From positions 3,520-67,519 of the IMG/VR virus record IMGVR_UViG_3300026097_000020: DNA of 64,000 bases, one strand, 5' to 3'. The stretch is from a virus. The position numbers and the translations under genes were made by a program. Shown here piece by piece: positions 2,322-58,401 of this stretch (position 1 is its first letter; each line of letters opens with the position of its first letter). The notes under the pieces are model-generated. The model searched no databases, was not told where the DNA came from, and saw only the letters and a list, made by a program, of their open reading frames with translations.

Positions 2322-3659
2322 ATGACTATGTTTAAAGCACACTGGGATACGGAAGGCGACAGCGTTCGTCTTTCTATGCCATTCAGTAAAGTTGACGAAG
2401 AGAGACGCACGGTCTCTGGTTTCGCTACCCTTGACAATGTAGATAAGCAAATGGACATTGTCACGCAAGACGCATCTGTAAAAGCTTTTGAAAAATTTCG
2501 GGGAAACATTCGTGAAATGCACCAGCCAACAGCGGTCGGCAAAATGGTCTCCTTTAAAGAGGACAAGTACTTTGATCCCGATACCAAAAAATTCTACAGT
2601 GGTGTATACGTTTCTGCATATGTATCTAAAGGTGCTCAAAGCACTTGGGAAAAGGTTTTAGATGGAACCCTTTCTGGTTTTTCTATCGGCGGTAAAATGA
2701 ACGACTGGGACGACGGCTATGATGAAAAAGCTGATTCCAAGATTCGTGTCATTAAAGATTATGATTTAGTTGAACTTTCTCTTGTAGACTCTCCTGCAAA
2801 TCAGTTTGCTAGCATTCTTTCGGTAGAGAAAGTTGACGGAGTTGACGTCCTCAAAGGCGAGGGGGTTGACGTAGTTCTCGAAAATGTATTTTGGGATCAA
2901 GAAAGTGGCCTCGTAATGTTGTCAGAAAATGAGACTGAAAAAAGTCCTACATCTGGCAAAGCGATGGACAATATCGGATTCGTTGAGAAGAACGATGACG
3001 ACAAACAAGATATGGTAAAGCTCTTAATTGATAGTGCTAAAGGCATTAATACAATTGAGATGAAAAAGGAGGTAAGTCCTATGACTGATGAAACCACTAA
3101 CCTCGAAGAGGTTGTAGAAAAATCAGATGAGGTCGCTCCAGAGGCAGATGCCGCAGCTGAAAGCGTTGAGGCTGCTGAACCAGCCGAAGCCGTAGAGGCT
3201 GAAGTTGAAAAGGCAGACGATGCTGAAGCAGAGGTTGAGGTTGAAAAAGCTGAAACCGCTGAGACCGAGGAAGTTGAAAAAGCTGACGAGGTTATCGAAG
3301 AAGCTGCTGAAGTATCCAAGTCTGATGACGAAGCTGTAGATGCAGTTGCCGACATCAAGGATACTATTACATCAGCCTTTAGCGATCTAGCAGAGACCGT
3401 AAAAGCACTACACGCCGAGGTCGATGCTCTAAAGAAATCAATTACTGGAGTTTCGGAAGAAGTTGCTGCTACCAAGCAGGAAGTTACCGAAGCAAAGGGA
3501 CAGTTTGATGAGTTTGGAAAGCGTGTTGACGCAGTTGAGCAAGACACTGCTTTCCGCAAATCTGGCGATCTAGGCGAGATCGTGCAGGATGAACCAGAAA
3601 TGGTTCAAAAATCCCTATGGGGCGGTCGTTTCCTCAAAACTGCCGACTTATTTAGATAA
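2322..3659 (+). CDS. prohead protease (HK97-like) fused to acidic scaffold domain
   Basis: N-terminal protease motifs (VSGFAT..VD, IREMH, GFSIGG, ELSLVDSPAN); C-terminal acidic coiled-coil with repeated VEK(A/S). Confidence 0.9.
   Translation: MTMFKAHWDTEGDSVRLSMPFSKVDEERRTVSGFATLDNVDKQMDIVTQDASVKAFEKFRGNIREMHQPTAVGKMVSFKEDKYFDPDTKKFYSGVYVSAYVSKGAQSTWEKVLDGTLSGFSIGGKMNDWDDGYDEKADSKIRVIKDYDLVELSLVDSPANQFASILSVEKVDGVDVLKGEGVDVVLENVFWDQESGLVMLSENETEKSPTSGKAMDNIGFVEKNDDDKQDMVKLLIDSAKGINTIEMKKEVSPMTDETTNLEEVVEKSDEVAPEADAAAESVEAAEPAEAVEAEVEKADDAEAEVEVEKAETAETEEVEKADEVIEEAAEVSKSDDEAVDAVADIKDTITSAFSDLAETVKALHAEVDALKKSITGVSEEVAATKQEVTEAKGQFDEFGKRVDAVEQDTAFRKSGDLGEIVQDEPEMVQKSLWGGRFLKTADLFR
3081..3659 (+). 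CDS. putative nested scaffold protein (in-frame internal start)
   Basis: Strong Shine-Dalgarno AAGGAGGT at 3066-3073 before in-frame ATG 3081, at the start of the acidic domain. Confidence 0.6.
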   Translation: MTDETTNLEEVVEKSDEVAPEADAAAESVEAAEPAEAVEAEVEKADDAEAEVEVEKAETAETEEVEKADEVIEEAAEVSKSDDEAVDAVADIKDTITSAFSDLAETVKALHAEVDALKKSITGVSEEVAATKQEVTEAKGQFDEFGKRVDAVEQDTAFRKSGDLGEIVQDEPEMVQKSLWGGRFLKTADLFR

Positions 3660-4885: not shown

Positions 4886-5344
4886 ATGAGGGAGGAAGAT
4901 TATATGACATCAAAAAAAGAAACTTCTACAGCTAAGCTAGCAGACGGCGAAGCCGTTATTACAGAAGAGATGGCAGAGAAATACAAAAAGGCAGTAAAAA
5001 AACAACAGACTAAACTTGACGAGACGGCAGAAGACAAAGGAGTAATTACTGCACCAAACAAACCTGGTGCTGGTGGTAAGAAAAAGTCTTCGCTTGGTGG
5101 GGCGACCGATACCGATGTTATCGGTTCTGCAGGTGCTAAAACTCCTGCAAAGCCAACCGCAAAAGCGGGGCAGAAGAAAGCAACCGTTGCCCTTTATTCT
5201 GATCGTAATGTTTCTTGGAACGGTGTTGGTAAACTTGAAAAAGGATACAACATTGTTTCTAAAGAACAGGCAGCCAGATGGCTGACACGTAATCATGTAA
5301 GAGAGGCTACGCCAGAAGAGGTTGCTTCAGAATACGGAGCATAG
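4886..5344 (+). CDS. hypothetical head-associated protein (basic, low complexity N-half)
   Basis: ORF between capsid and adaptor; TGTTATAAT at 4874-4882; start may instead be ATG 4904 (GGAGG RBS). Confidence 0.65.
   Translation: MREEDYMTSKKETSTAKLADGEAVITEEMAEKYKKAVKKQQTKLDETAEDKGVITAPNKPGAGGKKKSSLGGATDTDVIGSAGAKTPAKPTAKAGQKKATVALYSDRNVSWNGVGKLEKGYNIVSKEQAARWLTRNHVREATPEEVASEYGA

Positions 5345-44022: not shown

Positions 44023-44039
<17 letters not shown>
43623..44039 (+). CDS. nrdI: class Ib RNR flavodoxin NrdI
   Basis: [26 protein letters not shown]. Confidence 0.95.
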
Positions 44040-47201
<3,162 letters not shown>

Positions 47202-47205
<4 letters not shown>

Positions 47206-47378
47206 TTATGGATGAAGAGAGGTTCGGCAAGTGGCTTCGCCAGGGCATTGAAGAGGGTTGGGTAACAGAACCTTTTTGCAACACTCATGATATCGATCCT
47301 GGTATGGGTGAAGACGAACAGCAAGAGTGGGAAGATGGGGGAGATCCCTGTCAGCACGTAGTTAGAATAATGGTTTAA
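47202..47378 (+). CDS. hypothetical protein (58 aa)
   Basis: WLRQGIEEGW..PFCNTHD...WEDGGDPCQHVVR, probable metal-binding small protein. Confidence 0.65.
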
Positions 47379-47384
47379 ATTTAA

Positions 47385-47420
47385 TGGAATGTAGCTCAGT
47401 TGGCAGAGCAGAGTGTGTTA
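47385..47420 (+). pseudogene. 5' half of a tRNA-Asn-like gene, truncated at the anticodon
   Basis: TGGAATG-TA-GCTC-AGTTGGCA-GAGC-A-GAGTG-T-GTT-A: acceptor 5' strand, full D arm, anticodon 5' strand and GTT; no matching 3' half found. Confidence 0.8.
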
Positions 47421-47430
47421 TAATTAATAC

Positions 47431-47865
47431 ATGAAGTCTGAAAACATGGCAGAATACATGAAAGCCAGAAGGTTAAAGAGAAGGCAAGAGCTTCTTGTTT
47501 TGGCGGGTAGCAAGTGTAATATATGCAAAGCCACAGATAACCTAGAGTTTAATCACATAGATAGATCAACAAAGCTAATAACCTTAAGCGGTAAAGGCTT
47601 AGATGGCAAATGGGATAAAATTCTTGAGGAGCTTGACAAGTGCGAGCTTTTGTGCAATAATTGTCACTTAGAAAAAACCAAAGAGCAGTATAAAAATAAA
47701 GAAATAAGACCTTGGAATGACAAAAAACATTTGCCATACTTGCACGGCACAACAAGGTCTTATGAAGAAATAGCTTGTAGGTGTAAAGATTGTAGATATG
47801 CTAAAAAATTATATAGAGACAAAGTTGTTGGCTATTCAGAAATAGTTAATAATAGTGGAGCGTAA
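47431..47865 (+). CDS. HNH endonuclease (probable homing endonuclease)
   Basis: CNIC...LEFNH...CELLCNNCH plus C-terminal HGT..SY...CRC.DC zinc module; TGTTATAAT at 47416-47424, 6 nt before ATG. Confidence 0.85.
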   Translation: MKSENMAEYMKARRLKRRQELLVLAGSKCNICKATDNLEFNHIDRSTKLITLSGKGLDGKWDKILEELDKCELLCNNCHLEKTKEQYKNKEIRPWNDKKHLPYLHGTTRSYEEIACRCKDCRYAKKLYRDKVVGYSEIVNNSGA

Positions 47866-47927
47866 CTCAGCGGTAGAGTGGGATGCTGTTAACATCTTGG
47901 TCGCAAGTTCGAATCTTGCCGCTCCAG
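47856..47927 (+). tRNA. tRNA-Asn(GTT)
   Basis: Cloverleaf TGGAGCG/CGCTCCA, anticodon loop CT-GTT-AA, TTCGAAT T loop. Confidence 0.93.
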
Positions 47928-47928
47928 C

Positions 47929-47999
47929 GGGGATATAGTTTAATGGTAAAACGAGAGTCTTCCAAACTTTCGATGGGAGTTCGATTCTCCCTATCCCCT
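47929..47999 (+). tRNA. tRNA-Gly(TCC)
   Basis: GGGGATA/TATCCCC acceptor, loop CT-TCC-AA, discriminator T. Confidence 0.93.
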
Positions 48000-48001
48000 C
48001 T

Positions 48002-48138
48002 CGGATTAGCATTCTGAACAAATGCTATGAAGATTGTGTATCCGAAAGATTGTTCCAGCGGTAGAGAGAAGATGTTCAGATCGATGAACTCTATGACTAT
48101 GCGAGAACTAGGATATACAGCTAGTGGTAGGTAATCCG
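48002..48138 (+). ncRNA. putative structured ncRNA with loop-loop pseudoknot, family unknown
   Basis: Closing stem CGGATTA/TAATCCG, several internal stems and an 8-bp TCTGAACA/TGTTCAGA loop-loop pairing; fills the gap between two tRNAs. Confidence 0.6.
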
Positions 48139-48168
48139 TAATCAAACGGCGATACACGACTGGCACAA

Positions 48169-48241
48169 GGCCCGTTAGCTTAGCGGTTAAAGCACCTGCC
48201 TGTCGAGCAGGGGATCGTCGGTTCAAATCCGATACGGGTCG
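48169..48241 (+). tRNA. tRNA-Asp(GTC)
   Basis: GGCCCGT/ACGGGTC acceptor, loop CT-GTC-GA, discriminator G. Confidence 0.93.
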
Positions 48242-48273
48242 CAAATTATTAAAAAATGTGATAGACTATACTT

Positions 48274-48336
48274 ATGAGGGCAAACATGAAAAACACCAAT
48301 GCACGCTTTAGCCTTTTCTTTTATTGGCGATATTAA
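48274..48336 (+). CDS. putative leaderless 20-aa peptide MRANMKNTNARFSLFFYWRY
   Basis: TGATAGACT extended -10 at 48259-48267, 6 nt before ATG, the same geometry as other leaderless genes here. Confidence 0.4.
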   Translation: MRANMKNTNARFSLFFYWRY

Positions 48337-48378
48337 TATCGTAGAGCATTCGCTCATTTAAACAATAAAATTAAACAT

Positions 48379-48452
48379 GTAGCATTGGTGTAATGGTAGC
48401 ACAAGAGCTTCCAAACCTCTTGGTGTGGGTTCGATTCCTACATGCCGCGCCA
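48379..48452 (+). tRNA. tRNA-Trp(CCA)
   Basis: Cloverleaf with loop TT-CCA-AA, G73 and encoded CCA; mismatches at 3:70 (A-C) and 31:39 (C-C). Confidence 0.8.
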
Positions 48453-48453
48453 C

Positions 48454-48530
48454 CCCACGGCTGCTGGGACAGAGACGGGACTGTAAATCCTGTGCCGTTG
48501 GCTAGCGAGGTTCGATTCCTCGACGTGGGA
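48454..48530 (+). tRNA. tRNA-Tyr(GTA), atypical
   Basis: Loop CT-GTA-AA, variable arm GCC-GTT-GGC, canonical T arm, A73; C1-G72 pair and an unusual D arm. Confidence 0.8.
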
Positions 48531-48534
48531 CAAC

Positions 48535-48563
48535 TTGACTGACAGACATTGATCGGCTATACT
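48535..48563 (+). promoter_or_regulatory. sigma70-type promoter for tRNA-Thr
   Basis: TTGACT-17 nt-TATACT. Confidence 0.75.
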
Positions 48564-48571
48564 TGTCTAGT

Positions 48572-48645
48572 GCCTCCTTAGCTCAGTTGGCCAGAGCACC
48601 GCTCTTGTAAAGCGGGGGTCGTCAGTTCGAATCTGACAGGGGGCC
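48572..48645 (+). tRNA. tRNA-Thr(TGT)
   Basis: GCCTCCT/AGGGGGC acceptor, loop CT-TGT-AA. Confidence 0.93.
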
Positions 48646-48660
48646 CGAAGAAAGGAAGGC

Positions 48661-48903
48661 ATGGAAATAAATTTATTTAATTACTACGGACTTGATTGGC
48701 TATCTATGCTTCTTGGCTTTTTGGGTATGTGGCTACTTGGCAAGCGGCATAAGGTAGGGTTTATCTTTACAGGCCTAGGTATGATTTCTGCTCTTATCGT
48801 TGCCCTATTGGCAAGTCAGTATGGGTTCATGGTGGCCAACTTTATTATGATTATTCTTTCAGCAAGAAACTATATACTGTGGAAGGTTGAAGAAAACATA
48901 TAA
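48661..48903 (+). CDS. small 3-TM membrane protein (PnuC/SemiSWEET-like half transporter)
   Basis: Three hydrophobic helices, DW...G.WL.G....GF...YG......N....W pattern; AAGGA RBS. Confidence 0.6.
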   Translation: MEINLFNYYGLDWLSMLLGFLGMWLLGKRHKVGFIFTGLGMISALIVALLASQYGFMVANFIMIILSARNYILWKVEENI

Positions 48904-48978
48904 GCCTCTGTAGCTCAGCGGAAGAGCAAAAGGTTTCTACCCTTTGTGTCGCAGGTTCGATTCCTGTCAGAGGCTCCA
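48904..48978 (+). tRNA. tRNA-Arg(TCT)
   Basis: GCCTCTG/CAGAGGC acceptor, loop TT-TCT-AC, A20, encoded CCA. Confidence 0.93.
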
Positions 48979-48979
48979 C

Positions 48980-49008
48980 TTGACAACTTTTATTGTAAAG
49001 GGTAAACT
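48980..49008 (+). promoter_or_regulatory. sigma70-type promoter for tRNA-Ile
   Basis: TTGACA-17 nt-TAAACT. Confidence 0.75.
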
Positions 49009-49045
49009 GTTTATGTACCAATTAATATTTAACTAGTGGGGACTG

Positions 49046-49118
49046 CCCCCATTAGCTCATTGGTTAGAGCAGCACTCTTATAAAGTGTTGGCAACGGGTT
49101 CAATTCCCGTATGGGGGA
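49046..49118 (+). tRNA. tRNA-Ile(TAT)
   Basis: CCCCCAT/ATGGGGG acceptor, loop CT-TAT-AA, A73. Confidence 0.88.
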
Positions 49119-49131
49119 CAAAAGGAGAAAA

Positions 49132-49629
49132 ATGAAAACAGCATGTCTAATTGATCTTGCAAACAAAAATATCACAATTGAGGGTGAACACGAAGCAAAA
49201 CGTTTAATTATTGATTTTATTGTTGTTGGTGAAGAGGGCGAGAAGTATGATTTTAAACAAGTTAATTTTGGATATCAGCTTCAAAAAAACAATGACGAAA
49301 TTGTAGAAGAATCTTGGCCAATTCCCGGTATCAAGTTTGGAAAACTTGCTCCAGGTATTATAACTAGTGCAGATATCAAGCTAGAGGTTGATACAGATTA
49401 TAAGCTGCTTGTGTGGTATACCCGTGATATTTATCGTCATAGTGATATTAAAATATTTAACAGCGGTCGGCCCTATAAGGCTTATGACTCTATGATTTGG
49501 AACGAAGAAGCTGAAGAATGGGACATGCTTAAGCCATACCCCGAGGGTTCCACAGAGCCAATGATTTGGAATGAAGACAAGCTAGAGTGGGAAGTTTTTA
49601 ATTTTGGAGAGGATAGCAATGAAGATTGA
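49132..49629 (+). CDS. hypothetical protein with duplicated C-terminal MIWNE...EW motif
   Basis: AAGGAG RBS supports ATG 49132; the ORF-track start 49111 lies inside tRNA-Ile. Confidence 0.65.
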   Translation: MKTACLIDLANKNITIEGEHEAKRLIIDFIVVGEEGEKYDFKQVNFGYQLQKNNDEIVEESWPIPGIKFGKLAPGIITSADIKLEVDTDYKLLVWYTRDIYRHSDIKIFNSGRPYKAYDSMIWNEEAEEWDMLKPYPEGSTEPMIWNEDKLEWEVFNFGEDSNED

Positions 49630-50314
49630 TGTATTAGACAAGGGTTATGTTAGATTAGTCGATTGGATGGGCGAAGATCTGTCCGTAGTAAATGCAGCAA
49701 GGGTATCTTATGATAAAGAAATATCGGTAATGTCAGATCGTGACATTAAACTACTTAATTTCTTAATTAGGGAGAAGCATACCTCTCCTTTTAGACATGC
49801 AGCTATGACCTTTGAAGTTTATGCCCCGCTTGTTGTGGCACGGCAATGGTGGAAGTATGCGGTCTCATCTACACATGTTGATGACCAGAATGGATGGAAT
49901 GAATCTTCTCGTAGATATATTACAGAAGATGAGGAGTTTTACATTCCTACCGCCACACAGTGGCGTAGCAAGCCAGAGAACAGCAAGCAGGGCAGTGGCG
50001 AACCAATCAATGCAGAGGACGGACAAGAATACACAGACTATTTAATCAGTCATATTCAAAATGGTGAGAAGCTGTATCAGAAGGCTATGTCCGAGGGCAT
50101 TGCTCCAGAGCTTGCTAGACTATTCCTGCCAGCATATTCAATGTATGTTCGTTGGCGTTGGACTACCTCTTTGCAGGGGGTGATGACATTCTTAGAACAA
50201 CGTCTACCACATGACGCACAATCAGAGATTAGAGAATATGCTGACGCTGTTCTTAATCTATCTAAGGATATTTTCCCAGCAACATTTAATAGTTATCTTA
50301 ATCTAGATAGCTAA
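49619..50314 (+). CDS. thyX: FAD-dependent thymidylate synthase
   Basis: GYVRLVD, NAARVSY, HTSPF, NESSRRY, ELARLFLP, AQSEIR. Confidence 0.92.
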   Translation: MKIDVLDKGYVRLVDWMGEDLSVVNAARVSYDKEISVMSDRDIKLLNFLIREKHTSPFRHAAMTFEVYAPLVVARQWWKYAVSSTHVDDQNGWNESSRRYITEDEEFYIPTATQWRSKPENSKQGSGEPINAEDGQEYTDYLISHIQNGEKLYQKAMSEGIAPELARLFLPAYSMYVRWRWTTSLQGVMTFLEQRLPHDAQSEIREYADAVLNLSKDIFPATFNSYLNLDS

Positions 50315-58129: not shown

Positions 58130-58140
58130 ATTGCATTTAG

Positions 58141-58383
58141 TGGACGTGAGGGGAATCGAACCCCTGTCCAGATCTTTCTCCAATGAGCTTCTACATGTTT
58201 AGGTCTTCGACCAGATATTGCGATACTGCTATATAGTTATGGTATTGCTATTTTGCTATAAACTAAGCCGCTAGGGCAAATTGATTTTGTTTTGCATTTA
58301 TTAGTTTGCCACCGATTAAGGCACGGTAGCCCTACCACATGCTTCCTCATCATTGATACGACCTGTCGAAACCAGGCACGCCC
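58141..58383 (-). ncRNA. ssrA: tmRNA (transfer-messenger RNA), reduced, 243 nt
   Basis: GGGCGTG/CACGTCC-A acceptor with G3-U70, GGTTTCGAC 5' motif, T arm GGGGTTCGATTCCCC, pk1, tag ORF AKQNQFALAA* at 58295-58263; promoter TGTTATAAT at 58390-58398. Confidence 0.92.
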
Positions 58384-58401
58384 AGATATATTATAACACT
58401 A

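Follow-up and report, generated by a model that had tools for sequence, protein, structure and literature searches.

A stretch of viral DNA of 64,000 nucleotides (nt), positions 3,520 to 67,519 of IMG/VR record IMGVR_UViG_3300026097_000020 (hereafter the window), carries an HNH endonuclease gene that interrupts a gene for tRNA-Asn(GTT) at its anticodon arm. The front half of the tRNA gene remains as a stub, the last letters of the stub run into a promoter motif just before the nuclease gene, and the nuclease gene ends inside a complete tRNA-Asn(GTT) of another sequence type. The element is probably a free-standing homing cassette, related to the endonucleases of tRNA introns, that replaces its target instead of being spliced out of it. 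A cut-and-replace module is the best reading of this anatomy because the stub is of the type resident in related phages, the downstream allele is of foreign type, and neither a matching 3′ half in the contig nor a ribozyme around the locus was found. Such a module had been proposed in an initial annotation made from the sequence alone; its account of the anatomy holds, whereas its suggestion that the promoter was invented in this phage does not.

The stub reads TGGAATG TA GCTC AGTTGGCA GAGC A GAGTG TGTTA and, as initially described, stops at the anticodon (coordinates of all features are given in Table 1). It is unique in the window even when three mismatches are allowed (no match in any of 100 shuffles), neither ARAGORN nor Rfam at E ≤ 1 calls a tRNA in this region, and it is one base shorter between the D stem and TGTTA than every real tRNA-Asn examined. 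The extended −10 motif TGTTATAAT begins with the anticodon bases and ends 6 nt before the HNH ATG (47431), and the HNH stop codon TAA (47863–47865) occupies positions 8–10 of the intact, diverged tRNA-Asn downstream; both features had been noted at the outset and are confirmed. The window is part of a single, incomplete virus contig with 41% GC, and a matching 3′ half (CATTCCA after a T arm) to which the stub might be spliced is absent from its 67,519 bases; Rfam finds no Intron_gpI ribozyme at E ≤ 1 in 46500–50000, and this outcome, too, favours the initial annotation. The HNH gene is not embedded in an intron or intein, its open reading frame (ORF) spanning from 6 nt past the promoter motif into the next tRNA; the ribozyme core and pair of exons that mark a group I intron-encoded endonuclease are not found in the window.

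Table 1. Features of the interrupted tRNA-Asn locus and its flanks (positions in the window).
Feature	Position	Strand	Basis and remarks
Small ORF, 58 amino acids; resident left flank of the insertion	47202..47378	+	ORF list; colinear with HNH-less relatives
tRNA-Asn(GTT) 5′ half (stub)	47385..47420	+	Covers the acceptor 5′ strand and D arm, then the 5′ strand of the anticodon stem and its loop as far as A37
Extended −10 promoter motif TGTTATAAT	47416..47424	+	First five letters are the anticodon-loop letters of the stub
HNH endonuclease ORF, 144 amino acids plus stop	47431..47865	+	PHROG 4234; last 10 nt overlap the tRNA
Intact tRNA-Asn(GTT) of foreign sequence type	47856..47928	+	ARAGORN; Rfam 64.1 bits (cut-off 29)
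tRNA-Gly(TCC), resident right flank	47929..48000	+	Abuts tRNA-Asn without a gap; homology to HNH-less relatives resumes

Relatives of the locus, 80 in number, were obtained via nrdB (77–94% protein identity). None of the 80 carries a close relative of the HNH gene, five having only a distant HNH gene of another type (30–37%), and 25 of them have a plus-strand tRNA-Asn within the DNA fetched. In the window nrdA and nrdB (44023–47081) are followed by two small ORFs and then by an array of eight tRNA genes; the stretch from the end of nrdB to the stub aligns colinearly with HNH-less L134–L139 and L141/142, and the stub itself is colinear with the intact tRNA-Asn of HNH-less relatives. The stub begins 304 nt past nrdB, and in L135, L136 and L137 the tRNA-Asn lies 306–334 nt past nrdB and directly abuts tRNA-Gly. 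L135 aligns to 47000–47410 of the window and then again to 47885–48007, the alignment of L141 extends up to 47420, and the tRNA-Gly of L137 is 92% identical over 76 nt from 47925 onward. The resident alleles follow the pattern TG(G/A)G(A/G)T., TA, GCTC, A.TTGGCA, GAGC, which is that of the stub; their acceptor strands read TGGGATG in L151 and TGAGATG in L134–136, with a D arm TAGCTCA.TTGGCAGAGC. The stub matches L141 at 31 of 37 positions and L151 at 30 of 37, against 26 of 37 for the downstream allele beside it. The stub is the phage's own former tRNA-Asn, and the likeness exceeds chance. Two checks on the cut-and-replace proposal thus favour it: an intact tRNA-Asn of stub type is present at the HNH-less locus (L151, L134–136), and HNH-less relatives do not keep the half-tRNA. 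Relatives sought via a downstream ORF of 172 amino acids were not found, and an exact 25-nt stub pattern has no match in viral contigs.

The same locus also occurs without the insertion in other samples, represented by runs X2 and X4, which were examined as assembled contigs; no run listed as containing the sequence is recorded as RNA. Contigs of X2 and X4 (~90% identical over 47116–47411) join 47411 to 47933 with 55 other letters between; this bridge has the length of the rest of a tRNA and so represents the insertion-free state, while bins of X2 and X4 left uncovered over part of the HNH gene count as no evidence. The HNH gene is therefore polymorphic in its presence at one locus, as is characteristic of a free-standing homing endonuclease. 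The closest HNH-less relatives (L134, L135 and L136, with tRNA-Asn at 2926–3000, 5266–5339 and 1472–1545, respectively) have the anticodon loop CCGTTAA, with C instead of the near-universal U at position 33.

The downstream allele has the D arm ACTC-AGCGGTA-GAGT and the anticodon stem GGATG/CATCT, which occur in none of the 18 distinct resident alleles of relatives. It had been described as a tRNA with different D and anticodon stems, which this comparison supports, and by the same comparison it is of a foreign type. This kind of D arm occurs naturally in 11 other viral contigs that have no close HNH gene upstream. The D stems of the substitute tRNAs are changed on both sides (ACTC/GAGT, GTTT/AAAC, GCAG/CTGC and GCAA/GTGC); the GCTC/GAGC D stem is found in none of the four HNH-linked alleles versus 13 of the 18 resident alleles by script (Fisher p 0.017), the script having misparsed two further resident alleles that read GCTC/GAGC by eye. 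In run X4, a loose end after 47847 consists of a piece of the HNH gene (3 of 128 letters different), a stop codon and the start of a tRNA whose acceptor strand is another one but whose D arm is again of the AACTCAG type, a hint that substitute tRNAs may be mosaic. A D-arm match in L150 is a degenerate, unrelated tRNA-Thr-like piece.

The layout recurs. It was scored in viral contigs L001, L007, L088 and L089, the closest homologues (P0001–P0019) standing outside the count. Full-length relatives of the HNH protein are encoded in three distinct contigs (62% identity in L001, 52% in L088 and 46% in L089), each with a tRNA-Asn(GTT) on the same strand 7–34 nt beyond the aligned HNH gene; L007 (56%, N-terminal part only) has the stub and the promoter. 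In all five cassettes the stub reads GGCA, then three or four letters of the D stem, a single base, five variable positions and TGTTA, which runs into a −10 hexamer (TATAAT, TATAAT, TAAGAT, TAAACT and TAAACT). All five keep TGT, the hexamer, exactly six bases and ATG, and none has a Shine-Dalgarno sequence. L089 retains a full 5′ half with another acceptor strand. L001, L088 and L007 retain the stub from the D loop onward only, the acceptor part being gone, and in L088 and L007 the D-arm region has turned into a TTGACA box 17 or 18 nt 5′ of the hexamer. Just upstream of the cassette in L001 (2930–2966), a T arm and an acceptor 3′ strand without a proper 5′ part look like a broken tRNA.

Because the GGCA-to-ATG stretch is common to cassettes whose proteins are only 46–62% identical, the stub and promoter are best taken as an old, inherited part of a travelling cassette. 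The initial annotation had derived the promoter from conversion of the anticodon loop CTGTTAA in this phage, an origin that is not borne out, since the promoter stretch is common to four other cassettes. From GAGC to the end of TGTTA there are 15 bases in each of the five, versus 16 in all 16 parsed real tRNA-Asn genes. Every one of six stubs (five of tRNA-Asn and one of tRNA-Thr, considered below) is one base short and has a scrambled anticodon stem; the missing base could reflect common descent of ribozyme-less forms or selection against self-cleavage, and the tree described below does not decide between the two.

The promoter motif is also over-represented elsewhere in the window, where TGNTATAAT occurs 11 times versus 3.45 expected (0 of 100 shuffles reach 11). 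Seven of the 11 sites lie 3–9 nt before the start codon of an ORF of at least 60 amino acids, one lies at 14 nt, and another is 6 nt ahead of the 5′ end of the transfer-messenger RNA (tmRNA). Sites a few bases before start codons stand at 2304, 4874, 8939, 9645, 37434, 51438, 56649, 59336 and 62953. The tmRNA gene (58140–58398, minus strand) encodes the tag AKQNQFALAA, and the spacing of its TGTTATAAT, which ends 6 nt before the gene, suggests that the mature 5′ end is the transcription start. These positions point to widespread leaderless or short-leader genes in the phage, a habit typical of Actinobacteria. The HNH ORF has no Shine-Dalgarno sequence before its ATG. A second, unrelated type of HNH gene in L151, L139 and L167 has TG.TATAAT followed by TGAACC and ATG, and two intron-borne relatives (L023 and L034) have TGCTACAAT or TGGTAAGAT six bases before GTG. 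From the spacing of motif and start codon, transcription probably begins at the start codon, and a leaderless mRNA would be the habit of both the nuclease family and the phage. A generic sigma-70 scan of 46900–49700, in which extended −10 sites are not scored, returned 7 sites versus 6.6 expected. Two search patterns were discarded: AGCANNGTGTGTTATAATTA hit five stretches, one being the L001 contig again and four being unrelated promoters, and GGCAGAGCA-N5-TGTTA hit at least 118 stretches, the matches listed being chance hits that fell in coding DNA and not in any tRNA or next to an HNH gene.

The HNH protein matches PHROG 4234 ('HNH endonuclease'; E 7.5e-29) and four further HNH PHROGs; these are HNH families only, and a GIY-YIG domain is not matched. 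A large protein collection contains 19 homologues at 53–90% identity, and residues C29, C32, N41, H42, C71, C75 and H79 are invariant across 21 sequences, such that the His/Asn catalytic motif and the zinc Cys pairs are conserved, with a putative general-base residue. A structure model (predicted local distance difference test score 88.6) has as its best Foldseek match the HNH protein of GVE2 (E 0.12, probability 0.90); VIA-align superimposes it on a Cascade HNH domain (Z 5.2, root-mean-square deviation 3.3 over 69 residues) and on the GVE2 protein (Z 4.9, 3.6, 69 residues). A PDB sequence search with the family profile gave one chance match, ribosomal protein S16 (E 0.71). The HNH ORF has 35% GC, versus 41–42% in its flanks; the corresponding values of 30.5 versus 48–50% in L001 and 38 versus 47–48% in L089 are as expected of a recent arrival.

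Relatives of the nuclease are also found inside introns. When the DNA upstream of all HNH relatives was screened for D-arm-like sequence, 36 matches lay outside called tRNAs, and at 26 loci a tRNA-Asn(GTT) is split after CTGT by ~575–590 nt that hold an HNH relative (36–49% identity over the first 80 residues). The interruption separates anticodon position 35 from 36. In 23 of the 26 loci a matching acceptor 3′ strand comes after it, and the other three run off their contigs; the 3′ exon begins TAACC..., the joined exons restore the GTT anticodon loop, and all 26 have the standard D stem GCTC/GAGC. Rfam places Intron_gpI right after the ORF at 77.6–86.6 bits, above the gathering score, in each of three loci tested. 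These tRNA genes are apparently bacterial: 21 loci come from metagenomes and five from metagenome-assembled genomes named Nitrospiraceae, Binatia (two) and Deltaproteobacteria (two). A contig scan of genomes yielded only distant relatives that match the N-terminal domain; it served to name hosts of the introns and was uninformative on the cassette. In L023 (2441–3090) and L034 (2414–3085; L035 has the same sequence), a tRNA-Lys(UUU) within a tRNA array is split after CTT by an intron (Rfam Intron_gpI 51.3 and 73.3 bits, respectively) whose ORF encodes a full-length HNH relative (33–35% over 128 residues). Group I introns in tRNA anticodon loops, overlooked by the initial annotation, are a likely origin of the cassette.

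The introns in tRNA-Asn lie in L024 (2410–3031), L019, L021, L026, L029, L030, L037, L041, L042, L044, L049, L054 and L055, and in L057, L058, L061, L074–L076, L083, L084, L339, L341, L349, L357 and L363; that of L083 is flanked by a molybdopterin oxidoreductase-like gene. A title and abstract search of the literature returned no group I intron in tRNA-Asn, and a 2014 review of bacterial group I introns makes no mention of Asn (PMC3984707). In a quick tree of 43 rows, chosen from more than 200 loci and 19 database proteins and built without bootstrap, 30 rows form one group that comprises the free-standing Asn cassettes, the Asn-intron enzymes, four other Asn-adjacent enzymes and three not linked to Asn (Shimodaira-Hasegawa-like approximate likelihood ratio test, SH-aLRT, 92); the Lys-intron enzymes and that of mycobacteriophage Catera fall outside it.

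Catera belongs to a set of named phages whose tRNA arrays hold the same HNH family, its gp167 being 38% identical to the window protein. In Catera (L212, 91842–95225), gp167 is preceded by the first 26 positions of a tRNA-Thr(GGT) that is intact in HNH-less Spud (L406); after position 26 the stub has a scrambled anticodon stem, followed by TGGTATG, which matches Spud, and it is one base short. The 3′ end of the HNH gene overlies a divergent tRNA-Thr(GGT), annotated 'tRNA-OTHER' and pseudo, that has the D stem GCCC/GGGC and differs from the Spud gene over the first two thirds, homology resuming in the T loop. The Catera stretch is matched by 203 records, 15 of which cover at least 80%. In Bxz1-type genomes (L407) a different HNH gene precedes an intact resident tRNA-Thr; Spud-like genomes have no HNH gene and keep the last ~57 nt of the Bxz1-type HNH ORF, which looks like a decayed copy. 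The Bixzunavirus tRNA-Thr(GGT) locus thus exists in three states, of Catera, Bxz1 and Spud type, as compared by pairwise local alignments (a three-way MAFFT alignment was too gapped). With one kind of locus present in three states among these phages, the model lends itself to direct testing in a laboratory host.

According to the cut-and-replace model, the cassette would have inserted into the phage's own tRNA-Asn(GTT) at the anticodon arm (from ~47411–47421 to ~47925), bringing along a promoter and the nuclease gene, with a whole foreign-type tRNA-Asn to maintain function. Of the old gene, the 5′ part would be left as a dead stub, within which the left crossover would fall. TGTTA of the anticodon loop together with TAAT can be read as an extended −10 promoter, and the nuclease mRNA would be leaderless, given a motif 6 nt before the ATG and no ribosome-binding site. 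By analogy with other homing endonucleases, the enzyme would cut the intact tRNA-Asn of co-infecting relatives near the anticodon arm, and repair from cassette-bearing genome copies would bring in the promoter, the HNH gene and the substitute tRNA, the homology arms being the stub on one side and tRNA-Gly, or the 3′ end of the tRNA, on the other. Copies in the carrier may escape cleavage, the stub through truncation and mutation and the new allele through its different D arm and anticodon stem; we infer that these differences confer immunity. Intron-borne relatives would be protected since the intron splits the site, and the ribozyme-less form would replace instead of splicing.

A broader proposal, which we put forward tentatively and hold to be somewhat less than an even chance, is that one HNH family has specialised on the tRNA anticodon arm (Asn GUU, Lys UUU and Thr GGU) and alternates between a group I intron and a ribozyme-less cut-and-replace cassette with a substitute tRNA and a dead 5′ exon that serves as leaderless promoter. 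The changes in the stubs would be immunity scars that spare the stub from its own enzyme, and the divergent D stems of the substitutes would mark escape alleles in which paired changes preserve folding; intron-borne forms might have given rise to free ones or the reverse.

Several observations weigh against the homing-cassette interpretation. The whole tRNA-Asn of L007 lies just upstream of the cassette, not downstream; the D-stem comparison pools different phage groups, with rows that are not independent of one another. Pfam has no family for the HNH ORF at E ≤ 0.1, the assignment resting on a phage-specific library, and most fold matches are HNH domains, yet with middling Z (~5). The tree, with SH-aLRT of only 92 and many long branches, is a hint only. 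Downstream of the HNH gene, the tRNA alleles differ from one of the four cassettes to the next, so that a tRNA may or may not travel with the HNH gene, and the tRNA of L001 matches the surrounding GC and may be resident.

Among other explanations, it is unlikely that the locus is the fossil of an HNH-bearing group I intron that lost its ribozyme and 3′ exon, a second tRNA-Asn having rescued the phage and the HNH gene being left stranded or decaying. The HNH relatives borne by introns in tRNA-Asn and tRNA-Lys, the resemblance of the stub to a 5′ exon and the presence of two tRNA-Asn genes near the HNH gene in L088 and L046 would fit such a history. However, HNH-less relatives have a single tRNA-Asn immediately ahead of tRNA-Gly, a slot that the new allele fills exactly; the ORF is unbroken, retains every invariant position and has homologues up to 90% identical, and a 98%-identical HNH piece in another sample runs into a different tRNA start, which suggests ongoing exchange.

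It is quite unlikely that only the HNH gene moved, with the downstream tRNA-Asn being resident and the stub a partial duplication from an untidy insertion. The diversity of the four downstream tRNAs would then be expected, as would the L001 locus, where the tRNA but not the HNH gene matches the surrounding GC, and the T arm of the window allele (GCAAG/CTTGC) does resemble those of L135 and L151. It is nevertheless the stub that matches the resident type (31/37) and not the downstream allele (26/37), whose D arm and anticodon stem recur in none of the 18 distinct resident alleles; likewise the downstream tRNA-Thr of Catera is unlike the resident gene of Spud over its first two thirds.

We consider it improbable that the nuclease chiefly benefits the phage, as it might, for instance, by rearranging or amplifying the tRNA array to counter host defences that target tRNA. 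In the accessible part of one study SegB is reported to promote amplification of anti-defence loci (PMC13096335), and in that of another HNH genes are the commonest coding sequences in tRNA arrays (PMC5966550). The window shows no amplification or repeats of the array, and such a role is compatible with, not exclusive of, a homing cassette. That the stub is half of a working split or spliced tRNA whose 3′ half lies elsewhere is very improbable: the contig of 67.5 kb may not be the whole genome (a further point against the homing cassette) and relatives do splice at this tRNA site, but no Intron_gpI is found at E ≤ 1 in 46500–50000 and the ORF fills the space to the next tRNA, the contig has no CATTCCA after a T arm, the stub is one base short, and L001, L088 and L007 have lost the acceptor part while keeping the promoter part.

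The homing cassette has partial precedents. Like T4 SegB, SegF, SegG and MobE, it is an endonuclease ORF between or in genes that is present or absent among close relatives, and by analogy with these free-standing enzymes it would be predicted to cleave alleles without it and to be copied in with the markers on either side. SegB had been cited as the precedent; according to the part of the source available it is encoded in the T4 tRNA cluster, prefers a site that lies within T2L's tRNA-Asn gene and recognises a T-loop motif (PMC2330249), so that a tRNA-Asn target would be shared, whereas SegB is a GIY-YIG enzyme and hence a functional analogue only. Unlike SegB, which lies between genes, the window HNH gene lies inside the target tRNA gene, with half of that gene left and a whole substitute following.

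The closest structural parallel is provided by the mobile endonuclease ORFs (mORFs) of fungal mitochondria, which in the text available of one report bring a foreign gene end (Allomyces atp6; Glomus atp6, atp9, cox2 and nad3), the native part becoming an unused relic that groups with close relatives while the inserted part does not (PMC3630166). The window has the same three elements, an endonuclease ORF, a foreign gene copy and a native relic, in mirror-image orientation. The mitochondrial cases concern protein genes whose 3′ end is replaced in frame and whose relic lies downstream; in the window the gene is an RNA gene, the relic is a 5′ half that lies upstream and apparently serves as a promoter, and an entire gene is substituted. 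Like tRNA group I introns with homing endonucleases, the cassette belongs to the anticodon-loop class of sites, and relatives of its HNH protein are intron-borne; unlike them it has no ribozyme or 3′ exon, and function would be kept by replacement. The endonuclease of the tRNA-fMet intron is reportedly a known case that is specific for the anticodon region.

HNH genes have been associated with the tRNA arrays of mycobacteriophages and Mycobacterium, and a role in repertoire diversity has been suggested (PMC6409571, PMC5966550); through Catera gp167 they belong to the protein family of the window HNH. In the portions of the two papers available, co-occurrence is reported, and no half-tRNA stub, anticodon-arm junction or substitute tRNA is described. 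The literature searched, supplementary files apart, describes neither a stub made of half a tRNA nor a tRNA that substitutes for it, and no promoter derived from such a stub.

To our knowledge, homing endonucleases are thought to survive in essential genes only through removal by an intron or intein, and otherwise to lie between genes. Here one enzyme family appears both in tRNA introns and in a splicing-free form that brings a spare gene, and these would form a natural series along the long-debated transition between free-standing and intron-borne endonucleases. The cassette further suggests how a fragment of a dead gene could be put to new use as a promoter, and points to a concrete route through which nucleases may reshuffle the tRNA repertoires of phages.

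Around the locus, the small ORFs beside the HNH gene have no Pfam match, and the 58-residue ORF also has no PHROG match. A spacer of 168 nt (48001–48168) separates tRNA-Gly from tRNA-Asp; the tRNAs abut without it in L141, L142 and L189, and a contig of run X1 passes over it, joining 48000 to 48169. The spacer holds a D-arm-like piece and may be another decayed insert. Between tRNA-Thr and tRNA-Arg, an ORF of 80 amino acids (48661–48903) that has a weak match to the beginning of the nicotinamide mononucleotide transporter family (E 5e-5; 23.8 bits, below the cut-off of 27.3) may be a gene fragment. The second, unrelated type of HNH gene, which begins MKHKE and has an N-terminal helix-turn-helix-like part, stands right after the first tRNA of the array in L151 (2500–2924), L139 (4130–4566) and L167 (5825–6271), that tRNA being tRNA-Asn in L151 and L167 and tRNA-Arg(TCT) in L139; because of this position, the start of the tRNA array looks like a hot spot for nuclease genes.

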